A stretch of 64,000 nucleotides of DNA from an uncultured Candidatus Saccharibacteria bacterium (lineage in GTDB: Bacteria > Patescibacteriota > Minisyncoccia > Phycocordibacterales > Phycocordibacteraceae), in contig CAYSUL010000001.1 of NCBI GenBank assembly GCA_964434255.1, positions 181,695 through 245,694 of the forward strand. The letters run 5' to 3'. The notes beneath the pieces were generated by a model. It was not told where the DNA came from, did no database searches, and saw nothing but the letters and a program-made list of their open reading frames with translations. Below, piece after piece: positions 1 through 19,001 of this stretch (position 1 is the stretch's first letter; every line of letters starts with the position of its first letter). The translations under genes were made by a program, and so were the position numbers.

Positions 1-610
1 CCCAAAGCTCGCTCAGTCGACACGTGTTCCCATTATAATCGAACTTCACACGCGTTTCGGCGAACCGAGTGTTTTCTTCGTACGCTGGCAGGAGCGAGAT
101 GTAGAGGTAGTCCTTCTCGCTTTTGGGAATGCCATAGTCCGAGAGAAGCACAGGGCGAGGGTTCGCGAGGCGGATCAATTTCGTCTCGCCCAGCAGAAGT
201 GAGAGCCTGAGTAGCTGTCCCGTCCGCGAAAGTGCGGGCGCACGACTGCTATCTTCCATGGATTGAAGGACGCTCAACCCGGGAATCACCTTCGGGACAA
301 CGTCCCGAGTCATGTACCGTAACCCATAATCCAGCGCCGAGCCCGTCTGCGGAAAGAACGGGAACATGATATGAGGCTTCGTTTCATCGAAGCGCTTTAT
401 ATCGTATTCGAGCGGCTTATTCGGTTCTTGAGGCTTAGGCGCCACGATGCTGTACAGCAGCTCGCGAGTGGACTCAGGGACGAGCAGTTCCGGTGCGCCG
501 AAGACCATGGGAAAGGATCCCGTATACTTCTCCACCGGTTCCATCGCTTCTTCAAATTCAGCATCTTTCACATCCGCAGCGGCGGCATCGCGGGTCTTGT
601 CATCACTCAT
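1..610 (-). CDS. hypothetical protein, 5' part only (runs off window start; ATG at 610..608, MSDDKTRDAAAADVKDAEFEEAM...)
   Basis: Open minus-frame of 203 codons from ATG at 610 to position 1 with no stop. Not S14/S8, which normally follow L5. Preceded by the rplE terminator. Confidence 0.45.
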   Translation of the reverse strand, partial: MSDDKTRDAAAADVKDAEFEEAMEPVEKYTGSFPMVFGAPELLVPESTRELLYSIVAPKPQEPNKPLEYDIKRFDETKPHIMFPFFPQTGSALDYGLRYMTRDVVPKVIPGLSVLQSMEDSSRAPALSRTGQLLRLSLLLGETKLIRLANPRPVLLSDYGIPKSEKDYLYISLLPAYEENTRFAETRVKFDYNGNTCRLSELW

Positions 611-699
611 CACGTTTCTCCCCATATCGGTGGCCTGTCGGCCATGTTGATCCGGGGCCACTGTACCACTTTTCCGGAAAAACGAGTGATTTATGAAGA

Positions 700-730
700 A
701 AGCCCCCGGACGCAAATCCGGGAGCTTTCC
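700..730 (-). terminator. Rho-independent terminator after rplE
   Basis: GC hairpin gcccccgga-cgcaaa-tccgggagc followed by a T-run on the minus strand, immediately downstream of the L5 stop. Confidence 0.6.
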
Positions 731-742
731 TTGACGGCTTAT

Positions 743-1285
743 CTACGCCTCAACAGCGACTTTCAGTGGAAGGCCGAGGTGACGGAAGAATGCTTCTGCC
801 TCTTCCTTGGTCTTTGCGGTAGTCACGAGCGTGATAGCGAGGCCGAACACATCCTTGAGGTCCTCGTCGGAGGTCTCGGGGAAGATGGTGTTGTCCTTGA
901 TGCCGATGGTGAGGTTGCCCATATCGTCTATCGCGGTCGCGTTGAGGCCACGGAAGTCGCGCGTACGAGGGAGTGCGATGTGTATGAGCTTGTCGAGGAA
1001 GTCGTTCATGCGGTTGCCGCGCATGGTGACCTGGTACCCGACGACGTCGCCCTGGCGCATCTTGAACTGCGCGATGGACTGCTTAGCGGCACGAGGCGAT
1101 GCCTTCTGGCCCGTGATGCGTGCGAGACGCTCCTCGATGACCGCCTTGCGGTTCTTATCCGCCTTACCCACACCAGTGGAGACGATTATTTTCACGAGGC
1201 GCGGGGACGCGAAGACGTTCGTATAGCCGAACTTCTCCTTAAGGGAATCGAATGCGCTCGCCTGTTTTTCTTTTGAGATGATCAT
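743..1285 (-). CDS. rplE: 50S ribosomal protein L5
   Basis: 180 aa. FKMRQGDVVGYQVTMRGNRM motif and position after L24. Confidence 0.95.
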   Translation of the reverse strand: MIISKEKQASAFDSLKEKFGYTNVFASPRLVKIIVSTGVGKADKNRKAVIEERLARITGQKASPRAAKQSIAQFKMRQGDVVGYQVTMRGNRMNDFLDKLIHIALPRTRDFRGLNATAIDDMGNLTIGIKDNTIFPETSDEDLKDVFGLAITLVTTAKTKEEAEAFFRHLGLPLKVAVEA

Positions 1286-1295
1286 AAATAGTTGC

Positions 1296-1640
1296 TTACG
1301 CGAGTGCGGTGCCGCTCTTCACGGTGACGCGGGTGTTCTTCCCGTCCTTGATCTCGCGCTTCACGCGGGTTCCCTTCTTGTCCTTGGGGTCCTGCACCAT
1401 CACATTGCTGATGGCGATAGCGCGCGGGCGCTCGACGATGCGACCGGACTGGCCGCGGCCGGCGCTCTTCAAGTGGCGCTTCACCATACCGACGCCGTCG
1501 ACGACGATTTTCGCCTCCTGAGGAAGTACGCGGGCTACCTGCCCTACTTTGCCCTTATCCTTGCCCGAAACCACGATGACATGGTCACCTTTCTTGATTT
1601 TGAACTTGGCGGTCTGCTTACCAGCTGATGCTTTAGACAT
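1296..1640 (-). CDS. rplX: 50S ribosomal protein L24
   Basis: 114 aa. KOW motif KKGDHVIVVSGKDKGKVG. Confidence 0.93.
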   Translation of the reverse strand: MSKASAGKQTAKFKIKKGDHVIVVSGKDKGKVGQVARVLPQEAKIVVDGVGMVKRHLKSAGRGQSGRIVERPRAIAISNVMVQDPKDKKGTRVKREIKDGKNTRVTVKSGTALA

Positions 1641-1651
1641 ATTGAAATTGG

Positions 1652-2029
1652 TTAGACGACCTCAGGCGCGAGTGACGCGATGTTCTGCCATCCCTTTTCG
1701 ACCAGGTCGCGCGGTACCGGACCGAAGACGCGGTTCCCCTTCGGACCCATCTCCTTACCCTGCTTCTCGATGAGCACGACAGCGTTGTCATCGAACTTCA
1801 CATAGATGCCGTTAGCACGGCGGAAGGGCTTCCTCTGGCGCACGACGACCGCCTTGTATATGTCCTTCTTCTTTACCGCCTTGCGAGGCTGCGCAGTCTG
1901 GACCGATACGACAACGACATCGCCTATCTCGGCGTAGCGGCGCTTCGAGCCCCCAAGCACCTTGAAGACGCGCGCAACGGTGGCGCCTGAATTGTCTGCA
2001 ACTTTAACGATGGACTGGGGCTGTACCAT
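1652..2029 (-). CDS. rplN: 50S ribosomal protein L14
   Basis: 125 aa. MVQPQSIVKVADNSGA start and typical L14 sequence. Confidence 0.95.
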   Translation of the reverse strand: MVQPQSIVKVADNSGATVARVFKVLGGSKRRYAEIGDVVVVSVQTAQPRKAVKKKDIYKAVVVRQRKPFRRANGIYVKFDDNAVVLIEKQGKEMGPKGNRVFGPVPRDLVEKGWQNIASLAPEVV

Positions 2030-2035
2030 AAAAGT

Positions 2036-2278
2036 TTATTTAGCGATCTTGAACGACTTACGCTTCGAGATGGGGCGGGTAGCTACAATAGTGACCGCAT
2101 CTCCCACAGCAACGGTGTTGCCTGGGTCATCGACGAGGAACTTCTGCGTCTTCACCTGGTACTTCTTGTACTTCGGGTGCTTCACGTAGCGGGATACGGC
2201 GACCGTGGCCGTGTCCTTCATGGCCGTCTTGACGACGGTTCCGGTGAAGGTCTGGGGCTTGGAGATGTTGGTGTCCAT
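2036..2278 (-). CDS. rpsQ: 30S ribosomal protein S17
   Basis: 80 aa. FTGTVVKTAMKDTATVAV and position. Confidence 0.9.
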   Translation of the reverse strand: MDTNISKPQTFTGTVVKTAMKDTATVAVSRYVKHPKYKKYQVKTQKFLVDDPGNTVAVGDAVTIVATRPISKRKSFKIAK

Positions 2279-2286
2279 AGTAAGTA

Positions 2287-2484
2287 TTATACGGTCTTAG
2301 TCTTTACGGTCATTTCCGTCAAGATGCGTGCGATATCCTTGCGAACCTTGCCTGCGTGGTTCACGTCCTTCACGCGAGCACCGGTAGCGGCAAAACGGGC
2401 CTGGCGAAGCTCTTCACGCTTCTCGCCCAGAAGCTTCTTGAGCTCCTCCATGTCCTTTTCCTTGAATGAGATTTTCTTAGCCAT
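2287..2484 (-). CDS. rpmC: 50S ribosomal protein L29
   Basis: 65 aa. ELRQARFAATGARVKDV helical pattern, between L16 and S17. Confidence 0.85.
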   Translation of the reverse strand: MAKKISFKEKDMEELKKLLGEKREELRQARFAATGARVKDVNHAGKVRKDIARILTEMTVKTKTV

Positions 2485-2490
2485 ATGAGT

Positions 2491-2913
2491 TTAGCCGCGG
2501 GTGACGACGGTCGTCTTTAGAGGAAGCTTCGCGCCCGCACGGCGGAGCGCATCGCGCGCCTTCACGTCCTCCACACCATCGAGCTCGAAGAGCACGCGGC
2601 CTGGACGCACCTCGAATACGAAATGCTTGGGGTCACCCTTACCCTTACCCATGCCCACCTCAGCAGGCTTGTTGGTGATTGGACGGTCCGGGAAGATGCG
2701 GATCCAGAGCTTACCACCCTTTCCCGTAACGCGGGTAAGCACCTTACGAGCAGCCTCGATCTGGTTCGAGGTGATGCGGGACGGGGTCGTCGCCTTGAGG
2801 CCATAGGAACCGAAGGCCACGGTGATGCCGCGGGTCTCAGGACGCGCAAGACGCTCCGGGGACTTGCGTCCGGTCTGCCACTTGCGATGCTTTACCTTTT
2901 TCGGGAACAACAT
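2491..2913 (-). CDS. rplP: 50S ribosomal protein L16
   Basis: 140 aa. MLFPKKVKHRKWQTGR start. Confidence 0.95.
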   Translation of the reverse strand: MLFPKKVKHRKWQTGRKSPERLARPETRGITVAFGSYGLKATTPSRITSNQIEAARKVLTRVTGKGGKLWIRIFPDRPITNKPAEVGMGKGKGDPKHFVFEVRPGRVLFELDGVEDVKARDALRRAGAKLPLKTTVVTRG

Positions 2914-2920
2914 ACCAGTA

Positions 2921-3619
2921 TTATTTAGCGGCTGCGGCGCGAGGCGTCGCTACGCGATCCTTCTCGTTGAAGGTCTCGCCGAGGTAGATCCACACCTTGA
3001 TGCCGATGGTGCCGTACGGGAGGAACGCGCGCTCCTCTGCGTACCCGATGTTCGCGCGGAAGGTCTGGAGCGGGATACGACCCCGCTTTATCTGCTCGGT
3101 GCGGCTCATATCAGCGCCACCGAGGCGACCCGACACGATAACACGTACGCCCAGCACCTCACGGACCGCCATGACCTTCTCCACCGTCGACTTGAGCACG
3201 CGGCGGAACGGCATGCGCTTCTCGAGGCCTTCAGCGACCATGTATGCAACGACTGCCGCATCGGTCTCCGGCTGGCGAATCTCCATGATGTCGAGCTTCA
3301 CGGCACGTGCGGGCGCCGGAGAGAGCTTCTTCACGAGCTTTGTGAGCTCGGTGCGGAGCTTGGTGGCGTTCTCACCCGAGCGACCGATGACGAGGCCTGG
3401 GCGCGCGGTGTGGAGGATGACACGGACCTCGGCTGCGGTGCGCTCTATCTCGATGTCGGAAATGTACATCGAGCGGAGCTTCTTCTTGAGGTATGCACGG
3501 ATAGCCGCATCCACCGCGAGGTTCTCGCGGAAGGACTTCTTGTCGGTAGCGAACCAACGGCTCTTCCAATCACGGATGATGCCGAGGCGGTGCGCGTAAG
3601 GATGTACGGTGTGAGTCAT
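2921..3619 (-). CDS. rpsC: 30S ribosomal protein S3
   Basis: 232 aa. KH domain GLVIGRSGENATKLR. Confidence 0.95.
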   Translation of the reverse strand: MTHTVHPYAHRLGIIRDWKSRWFATDKKSFRENLAVDAAIRAYLKKKLRSMYISDIEIERTAAEVRVILHTARPGLVIGRSGENATKLRTELTKLVKKLSPAPARAVKLDIMEIRQPETDAAVVAYMVAEGLEKRMPFRRVLKSTVEKVMAVREVLGVRVIVSGRLGGADMSRTEQIKRGRIPLQTFRANIGYAEERAFLPYGTIGIKVWIYLGETFNEKDRVATPRAAAAK

Positions 3620-3627
3620 ATCGAAAG

Positions 3628-4017
3628 TTATGCAGCTGCCTTCTTATCGGCCCTAAGCGTCACGATGACGCGGCTACGGCGCTTGCGGATGGGCGCTGCA
3701 CGGCCCATGGCGCGCGGCATGTAGCGCACGAGCATGCCGGCGGAGTCGACGCGGATGTCGGAGACGCGGAGGGTCTCGACGTCCTCCCCTTTCTGCTTGG
3801 CGTTAGCTGCTGCGGACTCGATGAGCTTCTTTATAGGAAGGGATGCGCGCTTCGGGAGGAAGGCGAGGGCGTTCACGGCATCGGTCACGGACTTGCCCTT
3901 CACGAGGTCGGTCACAAGACGCACCTTGCGGGGCGACTGGTTGTACGTGGAAAGTTCCGCAGTAGCTGCGGACGGCACGCGCGCGACCTTATTCTTCTGG
4001 GTTCCTTTGGATGCCAT
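3628..4017 (-). CDS. rplV: 50S ribosomal protein L22 (N-terminal extension)
   Basis: 129 aa. RKVRLVTDLVKGKSVTDAV motif. Confidence 0.9.
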   Translation of the reverse strand: MASKGTQKNKVARVPSAATAELSTYNQSPRKVRLVTDLVKGKSVTDAVNALAFLPKRASLPIKKLIESAAANAKQKGEDVETLRVSDIRVDSAGMLVRYMPRAMGRAAPIRKRRSRVIVTLRADKKAAA

Positions 4018-4020
4018 AGA

Positions 4021-4368
4021 TTATTTCTTCTTGGCAGGAGCAGGAGCGGCCTTAGCAGCCTTTGCAGCTGCGATCTCGGTCTGCTGCTTCTTCTGCTCAA
4101 GCTGCTTCTGCATCTTACCTCCGTGACGGACGAACTTCTTGGTCGGGGAGAATTCCCCAAGGCGGTGCCCTACCATCTCTTCCGAGACGAGGACCTCCAC
4201 GTGGCTCTTGCCATTGTGGACGCCGAAGGTGAATCCGACCATTTCAGGCGCAATCTGGCTCCTACGTGCCCACGTCTTAATGACCCCCGCGGAGGCGGGT
4301 TTCTTGTCCTGGATCTTCTTCATGAGCTTTACGTCCACGAAGGGTCCTTTCTTGAGTGATCGAGACAT
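4021..4368 (-). CDS. rpsS: 30S ribosomal protein S19 with Lys/Ala-rich C-terminal tail
   Basis: 115 aa. [11 protein letters not shown] start and GHRLGEF motif, plus a ~25-aa tail [28 protein letters not shown]. Confidence 0.93.
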
Positions 4369-4396: not shown

Positions 4397-4434
4397 AGGT
4401 AAAATCTATATGAAACGGCGGTCGGTGTCAAACT

Positions 4435-4968
4435 TTGGGCCTCTATGCTAGGGTTTTTACGGATCGCAACACGGAGGAGGCCATGACAAGCCCCAGAAAT
4501 CGTACTGAGTATGCACGCAGGATCGGCACTTTGGCCACCCTGCGGACGACCAACCCCCAGCATCTCGGACGTCTCATCGCCCAGCGACGGGTACGGCGAG
4601 GACGCCAGTGGCTTGACCGCCATGGCCCACGCGGCTGGCACCGGAACCTGTTCGAGCCTAATCCGGGCGGCTCACGCTTCCGAGCGAAGGACTGTAGGGG
4701 AAGTGAATGCGTACTTTCCCTCGCGTTCGAGTTTGCCGTGGGCGCGAAGAACGCCCACGGCGAGCTTACCTTCGCCGTGGTAGAGGCGCACTTCGAGAAG
4801 GAACTTGGCGGAAATCGAGCGGGGCTTCTCGGGTTCGAGATCGGGATCCCCTTCCACAAGCGCAACCCGAACGTCACGATCGCGAGCGAGGAGCTCGATC
4901 GGTGCTGGGAAGATGAACTCCGGCATTATCATCACCGATGGTCACACATTCTAAAGGCCGTCGCCTAA
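4435..4968 (+). pseudogene. Doubtful ORF or decayed gene. C-terminal ~75 aa look protein-like; the N-terminal half is Arg/Trp-rich and implausible.
   Basis: Higher GC3 than the overlapping minus ORF 4672..4935. Followed by a plus-strand terminator at 4975..5004. No convincing start. Confidence 0.25.
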
Positions 4969-4974: not shown

Positions 4975-5004
4975 ACGGGGCCCCGCCGTACGCGGGGCCT
5001 TTTC
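4975..5004 (+). terminator. Rho-independent terminator
   Basis: cggggccccgcc-gta-cgcggggcc followed by TTTTCC. Confidence 0.55.
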
Positions 5005-5028
5005 CTGTTCCGGGTCTATACTGATCGC

Positions 5029-5835
5029 ATGGACATCAAGAACCCTTCATTCATCGGTGCTCTCGGCTTCGTGGCTCTCGTGCTCGGACTTACCGGCTGG
5101 TATATGGCCACCCATCCGGCTCCGGTAGCTCCTATTGTCGAGGAAGAACCGTCTGCGCTTGAATCGGAAACCCCAAAGAATATGCGCGAGAATTCCAAGT
5201 ACTACACCATCGACGTCACCTACCCCACCCACATCTCGTTCCCCCTTAGCAGCCGCAGCGACGCAGGAGTCGGTGCAGAAAACACAATGAAAACATGGGT
5301 CGATAGCGCAGTCACTGAATTCAAGGCATATGCAAAAGAGAACGAGGCGGCAATTGAGGATTTCGCGAACCGAGGTGATGAGATTCCGGCTACCCTAAGC
5401 TCCTCCGAGCTTTCCATAACCTATGGGAAGAAGAGCAGCGAACGCACCGTTACCTATGTATTCACCTCCGCAAGCTACACAGGCGGAGCGCACGGCATAG
5501 CGGTGCCCGTAACCTTCACCTTCGACAAAACAACGGGAGCGCAGATCGAGCTCGCTGACCTGTTCACCGCAGGGAGCGGCTATCTGTATCGTCTTTCAGA
5601 AATCTCCCGTGCCGACCTCCCGAAGATAATGGGAGGATTCTCTGAGTCCGGATTCATTGCCGAGGGCACTATGCCAAGAGACGTGCACTTCCAAGCCTTC
5701 TATCTCGAGGGCGACACCCTTACATTCCTCTTCGCTCCGTACCAGGTCGGCCCGTACTCGCTCGGTACTGTGACGCTTCCCATAAAGCTTTCGCGCCTAA
5801 ATGATATTCTAAAGGCCGAGTACCGTGCAGAATAA
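5029..5835 (+). CDS. DUF3298/DUF4163-like (RsiV / anti-sigma-V-like, PdaC-like) membrane-anchored protein
   Basis: 268 aa with an N-terminal TM segment. The C-terminal YQVGPYSLGTVTLPIKLS block resembles DUF3298. TATACT box 7 nt upstream, so possibly leaderless. Confidence 0.6.
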   Translation: MDIKNPSFIGALGFVALVLGLTGWYMATHPAPVAPIVEEEPSALESETPKNMRENSKYYTIDVTYPTHISFPLSSRSDAGVGAENTMKTWVDSAVTEFKAYAKENEAAIEDFANRGDEIPATLSSSELSITYGKKSSERTVTYVFTSASYTGGAHGIAVPVTFTFDKTTGAQIELADLFTAGSGYLYRLSEISRADLPKIMGGFSESGFIAEGTMPRDVHFQAFYLEGDTLTFLFAPYQVGPYSLGTVTLPIKLSRLNDILKAEYRAE

Positions 5836-5874
5836 TCCTCTGCTAGACTTTGATCAGAGGCTTGGAGAGCGAAA

Positions 5875-6093
5875 ATGTGTGAATATTGCGGCCCAACAGA
5901 CGGGAAACACGAACGTGTCAGGCCAGATCTCCTGGCTGAGATGCGCAGATTCAACGAAGTCGAGGCTGCGCGCCGCGGCCTCACCATGGAGGAATTCCAG
6001 GACGGGGACTATCTCGTGAGTCCAAAGAATAGGATCTTCTCGTGGTTCGAGGACGCTTGGGTGAACCTTCGACTCCTCAAACCAGGACTTTAA
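5875..6093 (+). CDS. small hypothetical protein with N-terminal CxxC (MCEYCGPTDGKHE...)
   Basis: 72 aa. GGAGAG Shine-Dalgarno 6 nt upstream and terminator right after. Confidence 0.5.
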   Translation: MCEYCGPTDGKHERVRPDLLAEMRRFNEVEAARRGLTMEEFQDGDYLVSPKNRIFSWFEDAWVNLRLLKPGL

Positions 6094-6101
6094 CGCCACA
6101 G

Positions 6102-6132
6102 AAAAGGCCCGCCATCCGGCGGGCCTTTTTCC
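6102..6132. terminator. Bidirectional Rho-independent terminator
   Basis: aaaaggcccgcc-atcc-ggcgggccttttt with A/T runs on both sides. Lies between the 5875..6093 ORF (+) and rplB (-). Confidence 0.7.
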
Positions 6133-6150
6133 TTTGCGAAACGCGCTTCT

Positions 6151-6996
6151 CTATCCTCGCTTCTTGCCAACCTTTCGGCGCGAAACGATGAACTTGTTGG
6201 AGTGCTTCTTCGGCGTGCGGGTCTTCTGTCCCTTGCCGGTCGGCTTGCCCCACATGCTCTTTGCACGGCGGAGTCCGCGACCCTGCTTACCTTCACCACC
6301 TCCGTGAGGGTGGTCTACCGGGTTCATGGCGGTACCACGGACCGTAGGGCGGATACCCTTCCAGCGCGACTTACCGGCCTTTCCGTATACCTCAAGGCGC
6401 TTCTCCTCGTTACCAACGGCACCGATGGATGCGAAGCAACGCTCGGAGATCTTGCGGATCTCGGTCGAAGGAAGCTTCACCTGGGCGTATCCCGCGTCAT
6501 GCGCGACCACTTCCGCATAGTTACCAGCGGAGCGTGCGATGCGAGCACCTGCGCCTGCCTGAAGCTCCACGTTGTATATGAAGGTACCGGACGGTATCTT
6601 GCCGAGCGGCATACGGTTACCGATCTTCACGGGCACGTTGTCTCCGACAACGAACGAATCGCCGACCTTGAGCTCCTTTGGAAGGGTCACATAGCGGCGT
6701 GCGCCGTCAGCGTAGAGGGCGCGGCCGATGAACGCAGTGCGATACGGATCGTACTCAACGGTCTCGATCTTTGCAGGGATGTCACGCTTGTCGTACTTGA
6801 AATCGACATCGCGGAGACGGCGCTTGGACCCCCCGCCCTGGTGGCGCGTAGTGATGCGGCCCGCATTGTTGCGGCCAGCACGGTTCTTGTTGGCCGAGAG
6901 CAGGCTCTTGAACGGCTTGTCACCCGAAAGCACGCCCTTGTACGTGACAACGGTCATCTGGCGGCGGCTCTTGGAGGTTGGCTTGAATGATTTCAT
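6151..6996 (-). CDS. rplB: 50S ribosomal protein L2
   Basis: 281 aa. VDHPHGGGEGK and GRNNAGRIT motifs. Confidence 0.96.
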   Translation of the reverse strand: MKSFKPTSKSRRQMTVVTYKGVLSGDKPFKSLLSANKNRAGRNNAGRITTRHQGGGSKRRLRDVDFKYDKRDIPAKIETVEYDPYRTAFIGRALYADGARRYVTLPKELKVGDSFVVGDNVPVKIGNRMPLGKIPSGTFIYNVELQAGAGARIARSAGNYAEVVAHDAGYAQVKLPSTEIRKISERCFASIGAVGNEEKRLEVYGKAGKSRWKGIRPTVRGTAMNPVDHPHGGGEGKQGRGLRRAKSMWGKPTGKGQKTRTPKKHSNKFIVSRRKVGKKRG

Positions 6997-7006
6997 ATTT
7001 CAAATG

Positions 7007-7375
7007 CTATGCGAACGTGATGCTCTCCCCCTTCTTGAGGTATACGTACGCCTTGTGGCGGCGAGCACGCGTGCCGACACCGCGCTTCGTGCGCATCGAG
7101 ACCTTCTTCGCAGGAAGGTTCACCATGTTCACCTTCACCGGAGTGACTTTGTATATCTTTTCGATAGCATTCATCACGTCGTGCTTGGTGACTGCAGGAG
7201 GAACCTCGAAGACATAGACGCCGTTCTCGGTGCCGATGAGCGCCTTCTCGGAGAACCAAGGGGCCTTGAGGACGTTCGCGATGCGATCGTCAGTAGGGTT
7301 GAGGACGCCGCGGCGTACCGGCGCCTTGGAAACGCGTACCTTCTTCGTATTCTTGTCGGATGAGAAAAGTGCCAT
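7007..7375 (-). CDS. rplW: 50S ribosomal protein L23 (N-terminal extension)
   Basis: 122 aa. Position between L4 and L2 and the KVNMVNLPAKKV motif. Confidence 0.88.
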   Translation of the reverse strand: MALFSSDKNTKKVRVSKAPVRRGVLNPTDDRIANVLKAPWFSEKALIGTENGVYVFEVPPAVTKHDVMNAIEKIYKVTPVKVNMVNLPAKKVSMRTKRGVGTRARRHKAYVYLKKGESITFA

Positions 7376-7381
7376 ATACGT

Positions 7382-8161: not shown

Positions 8162-8171
8162 AGTATTAAAA

Positions 8172-9122: not shown

Positions 9123-9142
9123 CTCGACGCCGAGCCAGTGGA

Positions 9143-10666: not shown

Positions 10667-10689
10667 ACCGCATCCTGCATGAAGATAAA

Positions 10690-10720
10690 AGCAAAACCGC
10701 CCGAGAGGGCGGTTTTGCTT
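10690..10720 (-). terminator. Rho-independent terminator of the tuf-rpsJ transcript
   Basis: aaaaccgccc-gagag-ggcggtttt with a T-run on the minus strand, 20 nt after the rpsJ stop. Confidence 0.7.
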
Positions 10721-10737
10721 CGGTCGTAAGCGAGTGC

Positions 10738-11100
10738 TTACACCATCTTCACATCGATCGTGACACCGGATGGAAGGTTGAGGTTCGTGAGAGCCTCGAT
10801 GACCTTCGGATTCGGGGACATGATATCGATGAGGCGCTTGTGGATGCGCATCTCGAACTGCTCGCGTGCGTCCTTGTGGACGAAGGTCGAGCGGTTCACG
10901 GTCCAGCGCTTTATCTCGGTCGGAAGCGGGATAGGGCCGACGATTGACGCATCGAAGCGGTTCGCCGTATCCATTATCTGCTTCACCGAGAGGTCGAGGA
11001 TCTTATGCTCGTAGGCGCGGACACGGATGCGAAGCTTTGGCTCCGCGGCGGGCGCGCTTGCGTCCTTTTTCGCCGTCTTCTTCGCTTTAGTGGCTGCCAT
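10738..11100 (-). CDS. rpsJ: 30S ribosomal protein S10 (Lys/Ala-rich N-terminal extension)
   Basis: 120 aa. RIRVRAYEHKILD motif. Confidence 0.93.
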   Translation of the reverse strand: MAATKAKKTAKKDASAPAAEPKLRIRVRAYEHKILDLSVKQIMDTANRFDASIVGPIPLPTEIKRWTVNRSTFVHKDAREQFEMRIHKRLIDIMSPNPKVIEALTNLNLPSGVTIDVKMV

Positions 11101-11121
11101 ACGAGTCAGGGTAGCACGCTA

Positions 11122-12324
11122 TTACGCGGTGATCTTGGTCACGACGCCGGCGCCGACCGTCTTACCACCTTCGCGGACGGAGAAACGGAAGTTCTCTTCG
11201 AGCGCGATAGGCGCGGTGAGCTTGACCTTGAAGGTCACGGTGTCGCCTGGCATCACCATCTCCTTGCCGTCTGGAAGGGTCACTTCGCCGGTCACGTCCG
11301 TCGTGCGGATGTAGAACTGCGGCTTGTATCCCGTGAAGAACGGCGTGTGGCGTCCGCCTTCATCCTTAGAAAGGACGTAGACCTCCGCTTCGAAGTCGGT
11401 GTGCGGGGTAACCGAACCTGACTTCGCGAGGACCTGGCCGCGGTGCACGTCTTCCTTCTTCGTACCACGGAGAAGAATACCTGCGTTGTCGCCTGCCTGG
11501 CCTTCCTGGAGCTGCTTGTTGAACATCTCGATACCGGTGACGGTCGTCTTCGCGGTTGGGTGGAGGCCGACTATTTCGACTTCCTCACCGACCTTGATAA
11601 CGCCGCGCTCGATGCGGCCCGTGATAACGGTTCCGCGACCTTCGATCGAGAAGATGTCCTCGATAGGCATGAGGAACGGCTTGTCGAGCTCGCGCTCTGG
11701 CTGCGGGAAGTACGTGTCCATGGTGTCCACGAGCTCCTTCACCTTAAGCGCCCACTGGTCGTCCGCTGAAGTCGCTTCGAGCGCCTTGAGGCCGGAACCA
11801 CGGATGACCGGGGTTGCTGCGCCGTCGTAGCCCTGCTTGGTAAGGAGTTCGCGCATCTCTTCCTCCACGAGGTCGAGCATGTCCGCGTCGTCAACCATAT
11901 CTACCTTGTTGAGGAAGATGATGAGGCGCGGCACACCAACCTGCTTGGCGAGAAGAATGTGCTCACGGGTCTGCGGCATGGCGCCGTCAGTAGCCGCGAC
12001 CACGAGGACTGCACCGTCCATCTGGGCGGCACCAGTGATCATGTTCTTGATGTAGTCAGCGTGGCCCGGCGCATCGATGTGCGCGTAGTGGCGGTTCGGT
12101 GACTCGTACTCCGAGTGGTGAAGCGCAATGGTAATACCACGCGCCTTCTCTTCCGGAGCGTTGTCGATGTTCTCGACCTTCTCTGCACGGGCCTTGTAGC
12201 CGGCTGCGGAGTTGAGGTTGAGGACGTTCAGGATAGCGGCCGTAAGGGTCGTCTTGCCGTGGTCAACGTGGCCGATGGTGCCCACGTTCATGTGCGGCTT
12301 GCTGCGATCGAATGCATCTGCCAT
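11122..12324 (-). CDS. tuf: elongation factor Tu
   Basis: 400 aa. [18 protein letters not shown] and NKVD motifs. Confidence 0.98.
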
Positions 12325-12524
12325 AGGTTCGTAAGTTACTGGTAGCTAAAGTTATAACTTTGCCGCGCCTGCCTGTTTTAAAAGACAGGCGACCAAGGCG
12401 GTAGGCGTTACCCGCGCAGCGCTTTCCACCAGTTCCCTATGAGAGGAACATTGAAAAGAGCGCCGTACTCGCGTTAATAGCTAAGATACAGGCCAGGAAG
12501 CGAGCGGTCAAGCTTCGAAGATAA

Positions 12525-12560
12525 GGAAACGCCCCTTCCGAGCTATCGGAAGGGGCGTTG
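12525..12560 (-). terminator. Rho-independent terminator
   Basis: aacgcccc-ttccgagctatcggaa-ggggcgtt hairpin followed by a U-rich stretch (TCCTTATCTTCG) on the minus strand. Confidence 0.5.
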
Positions 12561-12583: not shown

Positions 12584-12742
12584 TTAGTTTCGCTTGGGCG
12601 CCGGAGGGAGCCGCGGATGCTGGAAGCGTTCCTTCAGGTACGCGTCCTTGCCCTTGGGCGACTCATGAGGACGATGGTTAGCGTGCTCGATGTGCGGGGA
12701 CCTTCCCTCGCCACGGAGGAAGGAGGGACGATGATTAGTCAT
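12584..12742 (-). CDS. small His/Pro-rich ORF (52 aa, MTNHRPSFLRGEGRSPHIEHANHRPHESPKGKDAYLKERFQHPRLPPAPKRN)
   Basis: Not in the ORF track because it is under 60 aa. AAAGGTGA Shine-Dalgarno upstream and terminator downstream. Confidence 0.3.
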   Translation of the reverse strand: MTNHRPSFLRGEGRSPHIEHANHRPHESPKGKDAYLKERFQHPRLPPAPKRN

Positions 12743-12788: not shown

Positions 12789-13244
12789 TTATTGCAGCTC
12801 GAGGACCGTGGTGAAGTTCCCGCGGAAACCGTTCGATTCCGTCGTCGATTCCTCCTGCTGGCCCACTTTAACGACGTACTCGCCCCCCTCCTCGAACACC
12901 CCTATCTCGTCTCCTCCGCCCGCGAACCAGCAGAGCACCCCTGAAATCTGGCCTGGCTGCAGGTTCTCGGCAGCGATCTCGGCGCACGATCCCGCGTACG
13001 TACCGACCTCCTTGCTTTCGGCCCCGCGAATGAGCGTGACCGCAGTCTGCGGGGTGCCGTCCTTTTCTCCGGCATCCTCGAACTTCCAACTGAAGGTGGC
13101 AGAATCGTTCGTTTCTGCCGCTTCCGGCATCTTAGCGAGCTCCATCTTCTTGAAATCAAGATCGCCGCGCATATACAGCGCCACGGCTGCAGCGATAGCT
13201 ATGAGCAGAAGCGCCCCTAGAAGCAGGTTCTTTCGTGTGTTCAT
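12789..13244 (-). CDS. hypothetical secreted/membrane-anchored protein (start at MNTRKNLLLGALLLIAIAAAV)
   Basis: 151 aa from the internal ATG. N-terminal signal/TM segment. Inserted between fusA and tuf. Confidence 0.45.
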   Translation of the reverse strand: MNTRKNLLLGALLLIAIAAAVALYMRGDLDFKKMELAKMPEAAETNDSATFSWKFEDAGEKDGTPQTAVTLIRGAESKEVGTYAGSCAEIAAENLQPGQISGVLCWFAGGGDEIGVFEEGGEYVVKVGQQEESTTESNGFRGNFTTVLELQ

Positions 13245-13330: not shown

Positions 13331-13693
13331 TTATGAATTGCGACTCCCTCTCCGCCTGAACGGAACACGCTGGGTTATCTGGCCTGCCCTACCAAGACGA
13401 AGCGGTGGCACGCCGTGCGGAGCTTCCTCCCACCTCTTCAGCTCGTGGCCTCCGTCTATCGTGTCCATGCCCACCTCAAGGCTGCAGGACGGCCCAGCGT
13501 ACCGATAGGTATGCGCAGCCGCCAGAAGCAGCAGTACCTCCTCATCGGGAGTATGCGAGGCTTCCTGAGAAAAAAGCTCCAGCGAACTGGTGCCGACGAT
13601 ATAGGAATCCTCGTAATTCTCGAATGCGGGCCTGACAGTATTCATGAGCCCGACCCACACGATAAGTGAATGTAGATCTAAATCCTCGTTCAT
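13331..13693 (-). CDS. hypothetical protein
   Basis: 120 aa, acidic. First gene after the fusA terminator. Confidence 0.4.
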   Translation of the reverse strand: MNEDLDLHSLIVWVGLMNTVRPAFENYEDSYIVGTSSLELFSQEASHTPDEEVLLLLAAAHTYRYAGPSCSLEVGMDTIDGGHELKRWEEAPHGVPPLRLGRAGQITQRVPFRRRGSRNS

Positions 13694-13747
13694 CCCATTC
13701 CCCTATTGTTCTATCCCGACGGAATCCTAGCACACGCAGGCTAAAAC

Positions 13748-13775
13748 AAAGAGCCGCTTGAAGCGGCTCTTTGTC
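13748..13775 (-). terminator. Rho-independent terminator of fusA
   Basis: aaagagccgc-ttgaa-gcggctcttt with TTGTTTTAG on the minus strand, 16 nt after the fusA stop. Confidence 0.7.
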
Positions 13776-13790
13776 CTTACGAAAGTAAGA

Positions 13791-15938
<2,148 letters not shown>

Positions 15939-15999
15939 ATAGGTAATTAAAGTAAAAAGCCGCCGAGGCGTTAGTCATAAGATACGTTTTCGACTGCTA

Positions 16000-16036
16000 A
16001 AACGCAAGAAAAGCGAAGGGCGCGGATTCTATCCGC
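16000..16036 (-). terminator. Rho-independent terminator of the KGG gene
   Basis: agggcgcgga-ttctat-ccgcgccct with a T-rich run on the minus strand. Confidence 0.6.
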
Positions 16037-16070
16037 GCCCTTGTGTCGTCGCCCCGCTGGAGCGTATTGG

Positions 16071-16277
16071 TCAGCCGTTCTCCTTAGTGCGGCTACCCGC
16101 ACGATTGCTTTCACCGCCCTTGCGGCCAGCGGACGCGGCGAGGTCGCGGTCCTTGGCGAAGCTGCGCTTCTCGCCCGGGACACTCGCGCCGCCCTTGCGG
16201 GCGATTTCGCGCCGGCGTTCCGGATTCATCGCGGCGAAGCCCCGACGGGACTTTGGCTTAGCATTGGGGTCGCTCAT
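16071..16277 (-). CDS. KGG-repeat general stress protein (YciG/YmdF-like)
   Basis: 68 aa. RRGFAAMNPERRREIARKGG and a second KGG unit. Confidence 0.7.
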   Translation of the reverse strand: MSDPNAKPKSRRGFAAMNPERRREIARKGGASVPGEKRSFAKDRDLAASAGRKGGESNRAGSRTKENG

Positions 16278-16357: not shown

Positions 16358-16831
16358 CTACTGGCTCACGCAGTGATTGTACGAAGTGGTCCATCCGGCG
16401 CAGCCGGTTAGGGTCGAGGGTTCGGACGTGCCAGGATCCTGGTTCAAGACGGCACAGACCGTAAAGCGTCCATTGTTGTCATTCTCGTTTGCATAGAAAT
16501 AGTCGCCGGTCTGGTTCGCATAGAACGGATCGAGCGGCATCTTGGAGATATACGTCGGGACGATATCCGACTGGAGGGCGGCGCCCATTCCGCTGGTTGG
16601 ATTGGAGACGTAGGTGCACCAGCCGGATGTGCGCGGTAGTGAGCCGGTGCTGTTGTAGTAGCTGTTTATCGACTTCACGAGCTGGCTCACATCGGAGCGC
16701 CTCCGGGCATCGTTCGCCTTGTTGCGAGCGACGTTAAGCGAGGAAAGCACCACCGACGAGAGGATACCGATAATAGCTATCACCACGAGGAGCTCGATGA
16801 GGGTGAAGCCGCGATTGGTTGAGTGTTCCAT
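16358..16831 (-). CDS. type IV pilin / pseudopilin (prepilin N-terminal methylation motif)
   Basis: 158 aa from the internal ATG (MEHSTNRG|FTLIELLVVIAIIGIL). Class-III signal peptide plus hydrophobic helix. Confidence 0.8.
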   Translation of the reverse strand: MEHSTNRGFTLIELLVVIAIIGILSSVVLSSLNVARNKANDARRRSDVSQLVKSINSYYNSTGSLPRTSGWCTYVSNPTSGMGAALQSDIVPTYISKMPLDPFYANQTGDYFYANENDNNGRFTVCAVLNQDPGTSEPSTLTGCAGWTTSYNHCVSQ

Positions 16832-16833: not shown

Positions 16834-17097
16834 CTATTGCTTGATGATGGCCGGATTGATAACGCTGGCATCGATAGGCGTGATGACGACTATCTCCTTC
16901 GGTTGCGTCTTGAACGCGATGAATACCGATGCGGCGAGCACCGTACCAAGCACGCCGAGCACCACCTTCTCCATCTTGCCTTCGTCCTTCTTGGGCCCTG
17001 GTGTTATGAGCTGCCCGAGCGGAAGACCCGCACGCTTCCCGTTCGACCGACGCATGAGCGCCGGATCCTTTTCGGAATCGAATACTACCTCGTCCAT
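16834..17097 (-). CDS. small membrane protein (start chosen at MDEVVFDSE; the ORF could extend to 17247)
   Basis: One TM segment (VVLGVLGTVLAASVFIAF). 2-nt gap to the pilin gene. GGAAG Shine-Dalgarno at the chosen start. Confidence 0.4.
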   Translation of the reverse strand: MDEVVFDSEKDPALMRRSNGKRAGLPLGQLITPGPKKDEGKMEKVVLGVLGTVLAASVFIAFKTQPKEIVVITPIDASVINPAIIKQ

Positions 17098-17187: not shown

Positions 17188-17625
17188 ATGGAGATCCTTG
17201 AGATTGCTGTCCTGCCTGATGATTGGCCCGAGCACGAAAAGGTCCAATCGTTAAAGAAACCGCCGAAGGGCTGGCGCGGCGGCCACTACAATCGAGCGTG
17301 TCTTTTCGCAAAGCGTGGCTTCGTGCAATATGCGGCTCGACTGAACGAACCGTTCGATCGCCACTTTATCGGCATCATGTTCCTGCAATTGTTCGAGAGC
17401 TTCGATCAGCCTGCAGGCAGATGGCGGCGGCAAGTACCGCAATACCTGAAGACCTTCGATCCCTTCTTCGGGGCACCTATCACGGTCGGATTCGATCCTC
17501 TCACCGGCAACATGTGGGTAGCCGACGGGCATCATGATCTGAAATACTTCAGGAACCAAACCCTCAAGGCCGTGAAGCATGAGGGCTTTGAATTCGCCCG
17601 CGTAGTCCGCCCTCGCGAGCCCTGA
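17188..17625 (+). CDS. hypothetical protein
   Basis: 145 aa. AGGGAG Shine-Dalgarno and a plus-strand terminator 13 nt downstream. Competes with the antisense ORF 17251..17670. Confidence 0.45.
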   Translation: MEILEIAVLPDDWPEHEKVQSLKKPPKGWRGGHYNRACLFAKRGFVQYAARLNEPFDRHFIGIMFLQLFESFDQPAGRWRRQVPQYLKTFDPFFGAPITVGFDPLTGNMWVADGHHDLKYFRNQTLKAVKHEGFEFARVVRPREP

Positions 17626-17635
17626 CGAAATGTGA

Positions 17636-17668
17636 GAAGCGCGCCCTCCCGAGGGCGCGCTTTTCTTC
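17636..17668 (+). terminator. Rho-independent terminator
   Basis: agcgcgccct-cccg-agggcgcgct followed by TTTTCTTC. Confidence 0.6.
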
Positions 17669-17680
17669 AACCGCGTCCAT

Positions 17681-17718
17681 AAAAACAGAGGCGCCCGGTT
17701 GGGCGCCTCTTCGTTTTC
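17681..17718 (-). terminator. Rho-independent terminator of the 17731..17928 gene
   Basis: agaggcgccc-ggtt-gggcgcctct with TGTTTTTATGG on the minus strand. Confidence 0.6.
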
Positions 17719-17730
17719 GTCATTTTCTTG

Positions 17731-17928
17731 CTAGCAGTAGCGTGGGCGATTGGCCCGGTACGGCTCGAGATTGAGGCCTAGTTCCGGGATTGGTTCGGGT
17801 TCGGGCCGGAACCCGTTCTTCCGACAGATGTTTCCGGTGCATTCACCTCTTCGCGGACCGCACTTGAGTCCTCCCTCATCCGTACCGTTCGGAAGATCGG
17901 GACATCGTGGATGATGATGGCAATACAT
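17731..17928 (-). CDS. small Cys/His-rich protein (MYCHHHPRCPDLPNGTDEGGLKCGPRRGECTGNICRKNGF...)
   Basis: 65 aa from the internal ATG (ORF track gives 17731..17988). GGAG Shine-Dalgarno, 8 Cys, own terminator. Confidence 0.4.
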   Translation of the reverse strand: MYCHHHPRCPDLPNGTDEGGLKCGPRRGECTGNICRKNGFRPEPEPIPELGLNLEPYRANRPRYC

Positions 17929-18007
17929 GACCTTGCTCCATAAAAGTTCCCTCTGTGCCCACCCTACGCCTGCGATACGTAAATACAAGTGTGGGGGGGT
18001 GCATTAC

Positions 18008-18034
18008 GCAAAACCGCCCTTTCGGGCGGTTCGT
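18008..18034 (-). terminator. Rho-independent terminator of the rpsL-rpsG transcript
   Basis: aaaaccgccc-tttc-gggcggtt with TTTTGCG on the minus strand, 8 nt after the rpsG stop. Confidence 0.7.
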
Positions 18035-18041
18035 TCGGCTG

Positions 18042-18506
18042 TTACCAGGCGAAGTGGGCGAATGCCTTGTTGGCCTCGGCCATGCGGTGCATGTCGTCCT
18101 TCTTCTTGATAGCTGTGCCCTCGTTCTTAACGGCGAGGAGGATTTCCTCCGCGAGCTTCGCTGCCATAGGCTTACCCTTCTTGGCGCGTGCGGAGTTGAT
18201 GAGCCAACGGTATGCGAGGGAGACGCGGCGCTGCTGCGGCACTTCGCGCGGCACCTGGTAGTTAGCGCCACCGACACGGCGGGAACGGACCTCCATGAGC
18301 GGAGAGACGTTGCGGATGGCGGTCTCGAAGGTCTCGAGTGGATCCATCTCCTGCGCCTTGATGAGGTCGAGTGCATCGTAGACGACCTTGCGGGCGGTAT
18401 CCTTCTTGCCGTCCCACATGACGGTGTTGATGAAGCGTGAAATAGCCTCCGAACCATAAACGAGGTCAGGGCGGCGTGGGTACTTGTTTTTTACGGGATG
18501 TCGCAT
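18042..18506 (-). CDS. rpsG: 30S ribosomal protein S7
   Basis: 154 aa. Typical S7 C-terminal core. Confidence 0.93.
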
Positions 18507-18521
18507 GGTGGTATATGAAAA

Positions 18522-18932
18522 CTATGCCTTAGGCTTCTTAGCTCCGTAACGGGAACGGGAACGGCGACGCTTATCGAGACCGGCGGTGTCGAGGCGACCA
18601 CGCACGATGGTGTACTGGACACCGATATCCTTCACGCGACCACCGCGGAGCATGACCACGGAGTGCTCCTGGAGGTTGTGGCCCTCGCCCGGGATGTAGG
18701 CGGTGACTTCCATGCCGTTGGTGAGGCGTACGCGGGCGATCTTACGGATAGCGGAGTTAGGCTTGCGGGGAGTCTTTGTGGTCACCTTCACGCACACGCC
18801 ACGCTTGAACGGCGCCGAGTAGAAGGTTGGGCGGTTCTTAAGGGTGTTGAAGCCACGTCCAAGAGCCACGACCTTCGTTTTGCGGGTCAGTGGCTTACGT
18901 GCCTTCTTCGTGAGCTGATTGATGGTTGCCAT
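18522..18932 (-). CDS. rpsL: 30S ribosomal protein S12
   Basis: 136 aa. PKKPNSA(I)RK and RGGRVKD motifs. Confidence 0.97.
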
Positions 18933-19001
18933 TTCGAAATGAAAACTCCCCCGTGGGAGTTAGGCACACTATATATAAAGGCCTATATAAATGCAAATTA
19001 T

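Follow-up and report, generated by a model that had tools for sequence, protein, structure and literature searches.

We analysed a stretch of 64,000 nucleotides (nt) from an uncultured bacterium catalogued as Candidatus Saccharibacteria (assembly GCA_964434255.1, contig CAYSUL010000001.1, positions 181,695 to 245,694 of the forward strand), which we refer to throughout as the window, and whose first 19 kb carry the str-S10-spc cluster of ribosomal-protein and elongation-factor genes. It is the textbook case in which co-transcription and stoichiometric expression have kept a gene order fixed. Based on open reading frames (ORFs) and Pfam matches, all of its genes are encoded by the minus strand and follow the canonical order rpsL-rpsG-fusA-tuf-rpsJ-rplC-rplD-rplW-rplB-rpsS-rplV-rpsC-rplP-rpmC-rpsQ-rplN-rplX-rplE, as had been predicted from the letters of the sequence (hereinafter the original prediction); S12, S7, EF-G, EF-Tu, S10, L3, L2, S19 and L5 have Pfam matches in the window itself, and L4, L23, L22, S3, L16, L29, S17, L14 and L24 were assigned through precomputed Pfam matches on identical or near-identical proteins of sister contigs. 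The same prediction held that non-ribosomal genes with strong terminators split the array at every junction. The interruptions and their terminators are indeed present, but they open only five of 17 gene junctions, including the one after rplE, and the rest are tight. The open internal junctions have spacers of 2103 nt (rpsG/fusA, gap 1), 1466 nt (fusA/tuf, gap 2), 1942 nt (rpsJ/rplC, gap 3) and 1782 nt (rplB/rpsS, gap 4); all remaining internal spacers measure 3-21 nt, and the fifth break (rplE/rpsN, gap 5) lies 3' of rplE. The blocks so delimited are:

18042-18932, minus strand: unit 1, rpsL (18522-18932) and rpsG (18042-18506), 15-nt spacer; Pfam S12 and S7
13743-15938, minus strand: unit 2, fusA (13791-15938) and its terminator (13743-13775); Pfam EF-G domains, hairpin fold
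10682-12324, minus strand: unit 3, tuf (11122-12324), rpsJ (10738-11100) and terminator (10682-10718), 21-nt spacer; Pfam
6098-8789, minus strand: unit 4, rplC-rplD-rplW-rplB (6151-8789) and a bidirectional terminator (6098-6132), spacers 6-10 nt; Pfam
695-4368, minus strand: unit 5, rpsS to rplE (743-4368) and terminator (695-730), spacers 3-11 nt; Pfam

The cluster of Escherichia coli and Bacillus subtilis has the same gene order, likewise all on one strand. Here, however, the classical borders are closed (tuf/rpsJ, 21 nt; rpsQ/rplN, 6 nt) and new ones lie inside the classical operons, at rpsG/fusA, fusA/tuf, rpsJ/rplC, rplB/rpsS and rplE/rpsN, each consisting of a terminator, inserted genes (cargo) and a promoter motif. 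The str operon retains its gene order but not its contiguity, its gaps holding five and three genes and four strong hairpin-plus-U terminators. The S10 operon retains the order rpsJ to rpsQ but is split at rpsJ/rplC and rplB/rpsS, and the expected promoter and leader upstream of rpsJ are missing, the 21-nt tuf/rpsJ spacer being without a leader. The spc operon is not recovered as such: rplN directly follows rpsQ, and rplE is followed by a terminator, a single gene encoding 304-381 amino acids (aa), a promoter motif and rpsN. A terminator and an unrelated gene after rplE had been correctly foreseen, but the statement that this gene stands in place of rpsN and rpsH was an artefact of the window edge. 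Two contigs that are 99.8-99.9 % identical to the window (L087, which spans gaps 4 and 5 and reaches 99.93 % over 7.2 kb, and L089; here and below, L numbers are our locus labels) continue from rplE through one 304-aa gene into rpsN-rpsH-rplF-rplR-rpsE-rplO-secY, and thus rpsN-rpsH have not been displaced. Among the encoded proteins, L4 (259 aa, 7382-8161) and S10 (120 aa, 10738-11100) bear N-terminal Lys/Ala-rich extensions and S19 (115 aa, 4021-4368) a C-terminal tail rich in Lys and Ala.

At the head of every open junction stands a GC-rich hairpin with a U-run after it, and most cargo genes also finish with one:

18007-18032, minus strand: terminator-like hairpin after rpsG, AACCGCCC-GAAA-GGGCGGTTTTG; -18.6 kcal/mol, z -3.1
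16006-16042, minus strand: terminator after the KGG gene; -22.5 kcal/mol
13743-13775, minus strand: terminator after fusA; -25.5 kcal/mol, z -5.7
12518-12559, minus strand: terminator after the His-rich ORF; -29.2 kcal/mol
10682-10718, minus strand: terminator after rpsJ; -27.5 kcal/mol, z -7.4
10157-10191, 9556-9591 and 9179-9210, minus strand: terminators within the rpsJ/rplC gap; hairpin and U-run
9140-9177, plus strand: terminator of the 71-aa ORF; hairpin and U-run
6098-6132, both strands: bidirectional terminator after rplB; -29.4 and -27.6 kcal/mol on the two strands
4977-5011, plus strand: terminator of the 161-aa ORF; hairpin
695-730, minus strand: terminator after rplE; -26.8 kcal/mol, z -6.5

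Ten hairpins, not including 9179-9210, were folded and scored against dinucleotide shuffles, yielding energies of -18 to -29 kcal/mol and z of -2.9 to -7.4. Terminator-like sites number 37 in 19.5 kb, as against 17.8 +/- 3.6 in shuffled sequence. The recurrent form that had been pointed out earlier, AACCGCCC-N3-8-GGGCGGTT, is found three times (18012, 10695 and 10166) where none is expected. Furthermore, 16 nt of the rpsJ terminator (10687-10702) are exactly repeated at 10158-10173 in the terminator of the 111-aa cargo ORF (10157-10191), so that copies of the same terminator lie on both sides of this ORF. The stem of the rpsJ terminator is kept across strains with free loops and also follows rpsJ in L004 and L005; between strains the terminator stems undergo compensatory changes, seen at rplE, and the loops vary freely.

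Upstream of each block, just past the terminator that precedes it, we found a conserved sigma-70-like motif, in which a TTGACA- or TTGCAT-like -35 element is followed by a spacer of 16-18 nt and TAnnnT at a conserved position:

18968-18996, minus strand: rpsL promoter-like motif TTGCAT-17-TATAGT; consensus match, position conserved
15979-16007, minus strand: fusA promoter-like motif TTGCGT-17-TATCTT; consensus match, position conserved
12483-12511, minus strand: tuf promoter-like motif TTGACC-17-TATCTT; TTGAC(N) kept in an alignment of relatives
8884-8912, minus strand: rplC promoter-like motif TTGCAT-17-TAGAGT; similarity between strains resumes exactly at the -35
4403-4431, minus strand: rpsS promoter-like motif TTGACA-17-TAGATT; consensus match, position conserved

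The rpsL motif lies 29-48 nt upstream of its gene (typically about 34) in the window and in 9/12 near relatives (L004-L009, L013, L014 and L022), that of fusA 35-53 nt upstream in the window, L004-L009, L014 and L018, and that of rpsS 18-49 nt upstream (typically 29-48) in 11 of 18 near relatives; for rplC and tuf the distance from motif to start is typically 82-116 and 110-185 nt, respectively. At the level of sequence, this position-conserved pattern agrees with the promoters that had been predicted for the rplC, rpsS, fusA and tuf blocks, and extends to rpsL and to rpsN, which is preceded by a promoter motif in four strains. The motifs, together with the leaders that follow them, are conserved down to about 77 % EF-Tu identity, and the rplC promoter is kept in species with only 85 % EF-Tu identity.

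The leaders follow a common design, namely a GC hairpin of 4-7 bp with a species-variable stem sequence and then a U-run 5-12 nt before the AUG, which is seen for rpsL, fusA and rpsS across species, for rplC and rpsN in the strains of this species, and for rplC also in several relatives:

18944-18961, minus strand: rpsL leader hairpin and U-run, between motif and AUG
about 15950-15965, minus strand: fusA leader hairpin AACGCC-loop-GGCG and U-run, 3' of the motif
12325-12482, minus strand: tuf leader (5' untranslated region) of about 158 nt, between motif and tuf
8790-8912, minus strand: rplC promoter and structured 94-nt leader with a terminal hairpin and U-run at 8804-8821; conserved in L004-L015
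4382-4394, minus strand: rpsS leader hairpin CCCGC-GCA-GCGGG and U-run, 3' of the motif

Hairpins standing directly after the -10 and followed by 4-7 U occur upstream of rpsL, rpsS and fusA in many near relatives (L004-L028) and of rpsN in L084-L087, and these leaders lack a clear Shine-Dalgarno sequence at the usual distance. Stem variation of the short hairpins was judged by eye, the hairpins being out of register in the MAFFT alignment. Such a hairpin may act as a 5'-terminal stabiliser next to a U-rich ribosome-loading region or, alternatively, as a weak attenuator. The tuf 5' untranslated region is long (about 110-185 nt) in the window and in L009-L018, L023, L026 and L041; in several species it carries a hairpin and T-run (approximately ACGC-loop-GCGT-TTTT) about 5-15 nt after the predicted -10, and in L004-L006 it is conserved but of another kind.

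The rplC leader (about 90 nt) shares the motifs GCTAYGT(M)CC, a hairpin and GGACC(A/T)(A/C)(T/C)(G/A)G, ending in a terminal hairpin and U-run at the AUG (L004 11700-11844, L005 16275-16398, L006 12775-12917, L009 12590-12718, L010 4421-4543 and L015 5500-5655), and its stem has one compensatory change between strains, GTCCG/CGGAC versus GCCCG/GGGTC. Its terminal hairpin is weak in the window (-10.3 kcal/mol, z -0.2), and RNAalifold on the MAFFT alignment of these leaders, which is too gappy, returned no pairs. In the window Rfam gave no match to the S10, spc or any other ribosomal leader, its only hits at gathering thresholds being four tRNAs outside the region, and at E <= 5 it gave sub-threshold matches, mostly over terminator hairpins. 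In E. coli, the S10 leader mediates transcription attenuation by L4. With rplD (L4) as its second gene, the rplC unit resembles that system in having a structured leader of about 94 nt with a hairpin and U-run, but here the leader lies upstream of rplC rather than rpsJ and has no sequence or Rfam similarity to the E. coli leader. We present it as a candidate new ribosomal-protein leader of the L3-L4-L23-L2 unit.

The cargo of the four internal gaps comprises the following ORFs:

17731-17928, minus strand: gap 1, Cys-rich protein, 65 aa; ORF
17188-17625, plus strand: gap 1, 145-aa ORF; substitution pattern
16834-17097, minus strand: gap 1, membrane protein, 87 aa; ORF
16358-16831, minus strand: gap 1, type IV pilin-like protein, 157 aa; Pfam N_methyl PF07963, 36.5 bits (cut-off 21.2), E 3e-9
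16071-16277, minus strand: gap 1, KGG protein, 68 aa, two repeats; PF10685, 47 bits (cut-off 20.4), E 3e-12
13331-13693, minus strand: gap 2, 120-aa ORF of uncertain coding status
12789-13244, minus strand: gap 2, membrane-anchored protein, 151 aa; substitution ratio
12584-12742, minus strand: gap 2, His-rich basic protein, 52 aa; substitution ratio
10331-10666, minus strand: gap 3, 111 aa, followed by the terminator at 10157-10191
9604-10146, minus strand: gap 3, 180 aa, followed by the terminator at 9556-9591
9218-9547, minus strand: gap 3, 109 aa, followed by the terminator at 9179-9210
8907-9122, plus strand: gap 3, 71 aa, most likely the fourth gene; GC content at third codon positions (GC3) 0.74, own plus-strand terminator
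5875-6093, plus strand: gap 4, CxxC protein, 72 aa, ending at the bidirectional terminator
5029-5835, plus strand: gap 4, DUF3298/PdaC protein, 268 aa; PF11738, 45.3 bits (cut-off 24.1), E 2e-11
4483-4968, plus strand: gap 4, 161-aa ORF with weak coding evidence; terminator at 4977-5011

The predicted contents of gaps 1 and 2 were recovered in full, i.e. the Cys-rich, opposite-strand, membrane, pilin and KGG genes (the last two by Pfam) and the two hypothetical genes with the His-rich ORF. For gap 3 three of the four predicted small genes stand on the minus strand, and the fourth is most likely the 71-aa ORF of the plus strand. Gap 4 holds both predicted genes, but the CxxC gene, like DUF3298, lies on the plus strand, and a third plus-strand ORF (4483-4968) had been missed. 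The pilin-like protein carries a hydrophobic helix after its N-terminal methylation motif, its T2SSG match falling under the cut-off of that model; the DUF3298/PdaC protein additionally matches PF13739 (30.3 bits, cut-off 29.1); and KGG proteins are stress-related.

Most cargo ORFs are supported as coding, and several are under purifying selection as judged by substitutions between sister strains. The gap 1 genes were also called in sister contigs from the Hainich aquifer and their frames accumulate more synonymous than nonsynonymous changes, and the ratio of nonsynonymous to synonymous polymorphism (pN/pS) is 0.14-0.22 for the 151-aa and 52-aa ORFs of gap 2. Cargo GC is 0.54-0.61 (KGG 0.68) against 0.59 for the core, i.e. 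of native composition. Overlapping candidates were weighed on the same kinds of evidence: a minus-strand 139-aa ORF (17251-17670) over the 145-aa ORF was rejected with 0 synonymous and 7 nonsynonymous changes, as was a minus-strand 81-aa ORF (8811-9056) with a GC3 of 0.56 against 0.74 for the 71-aa ORF. Another minus-strand 81-aa ORF (5854-6099) was set aside solely since the bidirectional terminator marks the end of the CxxC ORF on the plus strand, codon-position GC failing to separate the two. At 4483-4968 the plus-strand ORF ending at a terminator stands against a minus-strand 87-aa call (4672-4935) in sister contigs.

Searches of the cargo against Pfam, NCBIfam, PHROGs and PADLOC found nothing beyond N_methyl, KGG and DUF3298/PdaC; one HicA-like PADLOC match (E 0.008) was sub-threshold and discarded. 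Viral contigs held no relatives of the three cargo proteins tested, 5.8 billion protein clusters no relative of the 145-aa ORF, and the cargo ORFs and their neighbours no integrase, transposase or recombinase domain.

The fifth gap is occupied by a gene of its own kind, which we term J5:

660-697, minus strand: conserved promoter-like stretch upstream of J5; strain alignment
1-610, minus strand: first 203 codons of J5, cut by the window edge; ORF, full length 304 aa in sister contigs

J5 proteins have 304-394 aa, a Pro-rich tail and no known domain. Their coding region is unalignable between strains at the DNA level; the alleles of 304, 305, 321 and 381 aa in near-conspecific strains share 21-33 % protein identity, next to identical L5 proteins (L087 6551-7465, L086 7517-8434, L084 10673-11638, L085 10677-11822). 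The 381-aa allele is, however, 57-67 % identical to alleles found between rplE and rpsN in two more distant lineages (L101 439-1608, L102 51-1235), whose L5 and S14 share about 88-91 % identity with those of the window clade, as counted by eye. The alleles thus do not follow the flanks in their similarity, pointing to recombinational exchange or to long-maintained allelic lineages. Single-sequence and alignment searches with J5 returned only itself or sister alleles, an exhaustive phmmer search of 1.84 billion representatives gave 3 weak hits only, and an AlphaFold2 model from a 4-sequence alignment was unusable at a predicted local distance difference test score of 32.7.

We then examined the cluster across relatives by locating 18 of its genes with tblastn in loci fetched around EF-Tu. 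Among species genomes, relatives by EF-Tu come from Candidatus Kaiserbacteria (85 %) and from other Parcubacteria, and we take the window to derive from a Patescibacterium of groundwater that is close to the Kaiserbacteria. In relatives with an EF-Tu identity of at least 75 %, gaps of at least 500 nt are present at rplB/rpsS in 14/18, at fusA/tuf in 12/15, at rpsG/fusA in 9/13 and at rpsJ/rplC in 8/21; at the other junctions of the same relatives they are present at tuf/rpsJ in 2/23, at rplX/rplE in 1/15 and at each of the 11 remaining ones in 0. The relatives with open junctions are labelled Kaiser-, Adler-, Campbell-, Zambryski- and Yonathbacteria, and the largest rplB/rpsS gap, 4855 nt, is that of a Taylorbacteria genome (L042, EF-Tu 71 %). 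The most distant group (EF-Tu below 69 %; other Patescibacteria, Acidobacteriota, Proteobacteria and others) has rplB/rpsS open in 0/18. In some relatives the link is fully lost, with no rplC within 9.6 kb in L008 and no rpsS within about 7 kb in L011 and L033, and in L004 the rpsJ terminator is followed directly by the rplC promoter in a 210-nt gap with zero cargo.

The cargo held in common with other species amounts to DUF3298, which L005 and L006 have at the same junction and again opposite to the ribosomal genes, and a single match of the gap 1 pilin to L039. Because the same four junctions are open in relatives and the rpsJ terminator stem and rplC promoter are conserved, the break positions are, by this comparison, an old trait shared by a sub-clade of Parcubacteria, and by the same comparison the cargo is young and strain-variable, DUF3298 excepted. 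The suggestion that the fragmentation is recent or peculiar to this genome is thereby not supported; of the two outcomes that a synteny check could have had, an ancient lineage trait holds for the break positions but not for their contents, which, apart from DUF3298, are not ancient conserved residents. In more distant Patescibacteria the fusA/tuf junction has a conserved small ORF of 67-124 aa on the ribosomal strand (L032 9582-9842, L035 9581-9832, L043 9685-9888, L045 9535-9843, L046 8188-8562 and L053 4061-4363).

Sister strains (L084/L097, from NCBI GCA_040384045.1; L085/L098, L086, L088, L096 and L099) allowed this turnover to be followed at close range. Their ribosomal genes are 92-98 % identical to those of the window and their S10 and L5 proteins 100 % identical. 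Similarity ends a few bases after the U-runs of the rpsJ and rplE terminators or at the rplB stop codon, and returns with the -35 element for both rplC and rpsN. For rpsS it returns about 20 nt ahead of the -35 in L084; L085 is collinear over the rplB/rpsS gap. Between these points the DNA is unalignable or mosaic among strains. The rpsJ/rplC gap has three cargo configurations among strains with identical S10, and the rplB/rpsS gap also three, with DUF3298 accompanied by the CxxC gene in the window, by a HIT gene in L084 and by nothing in L085, and with the 161-aa ORF replaced by a 63-aa gene in L084. At fusA/tuf there are two, the 52-aa His-rich gene being swapped for a pilin-like 157-aa gene in L097, and at rplE/rpsN the four J5 alleles of near-conspecific strains are joined by the two of related lineages. 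Close strains thus differ in content between identical flanking core genes at four junctions. At 4483-4968, identity reaches 99.8-100 % among strains whose adjoining rpsS and DUF3298 are only 96-98.5 % identical, which suggests recent transfer or a recent sweep.

Independent assemblies show the same architecture (ENA Hainich H51/H43, ERZ27247837, Logan SRR13723392/94 and NCBI GCA_040384045.1), one contig of which spans 640 kb. Exact-protein look-ups place window proteins in Hainich aquifer metagenomes and related runs, and when exact matches to the rplC leader were sought across metagenomes, a single 2-kb contig turned up. Short-read sister contigs often end at gap borders (L002 and L003 after rpsJ; L090-L093 start 66-83 nt upstream of rpsL), as is expected if the population is heterogeneous there.

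In light of these observations we propose, with a probability of roughly 0.7, that the cluster keeps its ancestral order and has been re-partitioned into at least six apparently autonomous units, namely rpsL-rpsG; fusA; tuf-rpsJ; rplC-rplD-rplW-rplB; rpsS to rplE; and rpsN through secY and beyond, and that the spacers between them are recombinase-free hotspots for small accessory genes. A sigma-70-like promoter motif would open each unit, followed by a short leader that is typically a small GC hairpin with a U-run at the AUG, and units 1-5, whose 3' ends were seen, would end in a strong intrinsic terminator. The DNA from a terminator to the next promoter would be free of ribosomal constraint, and small genes could be gained, lost and swapped there, mostly orphans usually having their own terminators, together with pilin, KGG, DUF3298 and, in a sister strain, HIT genes. 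The architecture, its conservation pattern and the cargo turnover are read directly from the compared sequences; that the motifs fire and the hairpins terminate transcription, and that cargo is exchanged through homologous recombination that uses the ultra-conserved ribosomal flanks as anchors, we infer.

Several points weigh against this proposal. Promoter and terminator function is deduced from consensus matches, positional conservation and folding energies, and a generic promoter scan found 6 candidates against 7.0 +/- 2.5 in shuffles, i.e. no enrichment. Read-through of terminators may occur, for instance after rpsG with its short U-run, and the leader hairpins with their U-runs could attenuate transcription, in which case the units may not be simple constitutive operons. 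The abrupt identity breakpoints and discordant J5 alleles fit recombination, but equally a long-maintained polymorphism. Finally, coding evidence is weak for the 120-aa (13331-13693), 111-aa (10331-10666) and 161-aa (4483-4968) ORFs.

These data bear also on other accounts of the gaps. That recent, genome-specific insertions broke an intact array, with compensating promoters arising later, would agree with nearly all cargo ORFs being orphans without homologues outside the species and with their variation between strains, but we hold it to be very unlikely. Most related species are open at the same junctions with other cargo or none, L004 combines the rpsJ terminator and rplC promoter with no cargo at all, and the promoters and leaders are conserved well beyond the species; the split is therefore older than the cargo now seen. 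A dedicated mobile system, such as integron-like cassettes, miniature transposons or prophage remnants using the gaps as target sites, finds some footing in the cassette-like units of one small gene and one hairpin, in the 111-aa gene lying between two terminator copies with 16 identical nt, and in the near-identity of 4483-4968 across strains with 96-98 % flanks. Yet the cargo ORFs are devoid of integrase, transposase and recombinase domains, no defence-system match rose above threshold, viral contigs held no relatives, no flanking direct repeats were seen besides the duplicated rpsJ terminator, and the hairpins are terminators of GC-stem and U-run type with strain-specific sequences and no attC-like consensus, and we accordingly regard such a system as quite unlikely. 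More distinctive is the possibility that the spacers are selected exchange platforms and not just tolerated gaps, in which ribosomal genes, promoters and terminators would serve as homology arms, small cassettes and whole J5 alleles would pass from lineage to lineage through homologous recombination with no recombinase involved, and cargo such as J5 would persist as long-lived trans-specific alleles under frequency-dependent selection arising from phage or host interaction; we treat this as unlikely but worth entertaining.

It is also conceivable that the cargo genes are translation partners co-expressed with the ribosomal genes through terminator read-through, leaving the array functionally one cluster. 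The small, basic or zinc-ribbon-like nature of the His-rich 52-aa, CxxC 72-aa and Cys-rich 65-aa proteins, the stress connection of KGG proteins, the residence of the J5 family at rplE/rpsN in at least six lineages and the retention of DUF3298 at rplB/rpsS in three species would suit it. However, the cargo is not kept across species and is swapped between strains with identical ribosomal proteins, the opposite strand encodes the 145-aa ORF and the whole gap 4 cargo, strong terminators insulate each cargo gene, and no match to ribosomal or translation families emerged, making this very improbable. The chance that chimeric contigs from faulty assembly or binning joined ribosomal segments to unrelated DNA is close to nil: several short-read sister contigs do end exactly at gap borders, but strain heterogeneity would itself yield such breaks, the ENA, Logan and NCBI assemblies agree on the architecture, the 640-kb contig included, and L087 matches the window across gaps 4 and 5 nearly base for base.

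Among known systems, the gaps invite comparison with horizontal-transfer hotspots, the flexible islets flanked by core genes that Oliveira et al. 2017 are said to have described. As in those, the same core flanks bracket differing content between strains and mobility genes are not needed, but here the genes on either side are the cell's most conserved ones and belong to a normally co-transcribed array, the islets measure 0.2-5 kb, and their borders coincide within a few nt with a terminator and a promoter. Integron cassette arrays likewise are strain-variable strings of small, mostly orphan, promoter-poor genes with imperfect palindromes; unlike them, the gaps have no IntI-type integrase (gaps and flanks were searched), no attC consensus and a mixed orientation. 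In Gammaproteobacteria and Bacilli, the part of PMC8046335 drawn on here describes few-gene insertions, most of which separate operons (tusDCB, bfd-bfr, ilv-leu) although nrdHEF sits within the rpoBC operon, as well as a two-step path of insertion followed by full disconnection. Insertion of unrelated genes with colinearity kept is common to both cases, and L008, L011 and L033 mirror the disconnection step; the cargo in that part of the study is, however, recognisable metabolic genes, as opposed to mostly orphans with strain-level turnover here, where moreover four or five intra-operon junctions of str, S10 and spc are open together across a clade. Our literature search found no report of internal str/S10/spc operon splitting in Patescibacteria. 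We therefore regard as new the non-canonical border positions, their clade-wide conservation with promoters and leaders, the strain-level flux of cargo and the hypervariable J5.

As to the surroundings of the cluster, rpoBC does not adjoin rpsL here; judging from ORF length, rpoBC-sized ORFs adjoin it only in WWE3 and Binatus loci and not in the Parcubacteria relatives. Directly upstream of rpsL, at 19001-22075, GC falls to 0.47-0.49, and in the place where many bacteria have rpoBC this stretch encodes a membrane ORF of 146 aa along with a secreted LCAT-like alpha/beta-hydrolase of 876 aa. The start of 4/6 sister contigs shortly upstream of rpsL points to one more variable border at that place. 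Further along the cluster, sister strains have a guanylate kinase gene between secY and adk (L084 15799-16368, L085 15944-16513, L086 12572-13141) and a nucleoside-diphosphate kinase gene after map. Elsewhere in the window lies one further feature:

55094-56847, minus strand: four tRNAs, Gly-TCC, Pro-TGG, Gly-GCC and Arg-TCG; Rfam

The str-S10-spc array is also the scaffold of the 16-protein marker set that places Patescibacteria in the tree of life. A sub-clade of Parcubacteria appears to have moved the operon borders of this array inward, and to tolerate or exploit fast-turnover orphans within it; gene order may therefore persist without co-transcription. The conserved leaders and J5 are concrete new targets for study, and the variable gaps, which explain contig breaks within the marker block of short-read assemblies, offer strain-resolving markers between universal priming sites. 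Above all, the cluster is a natural system for asking how the stoichiometry of ribosomal proteins holds when they are encoded in many small units.

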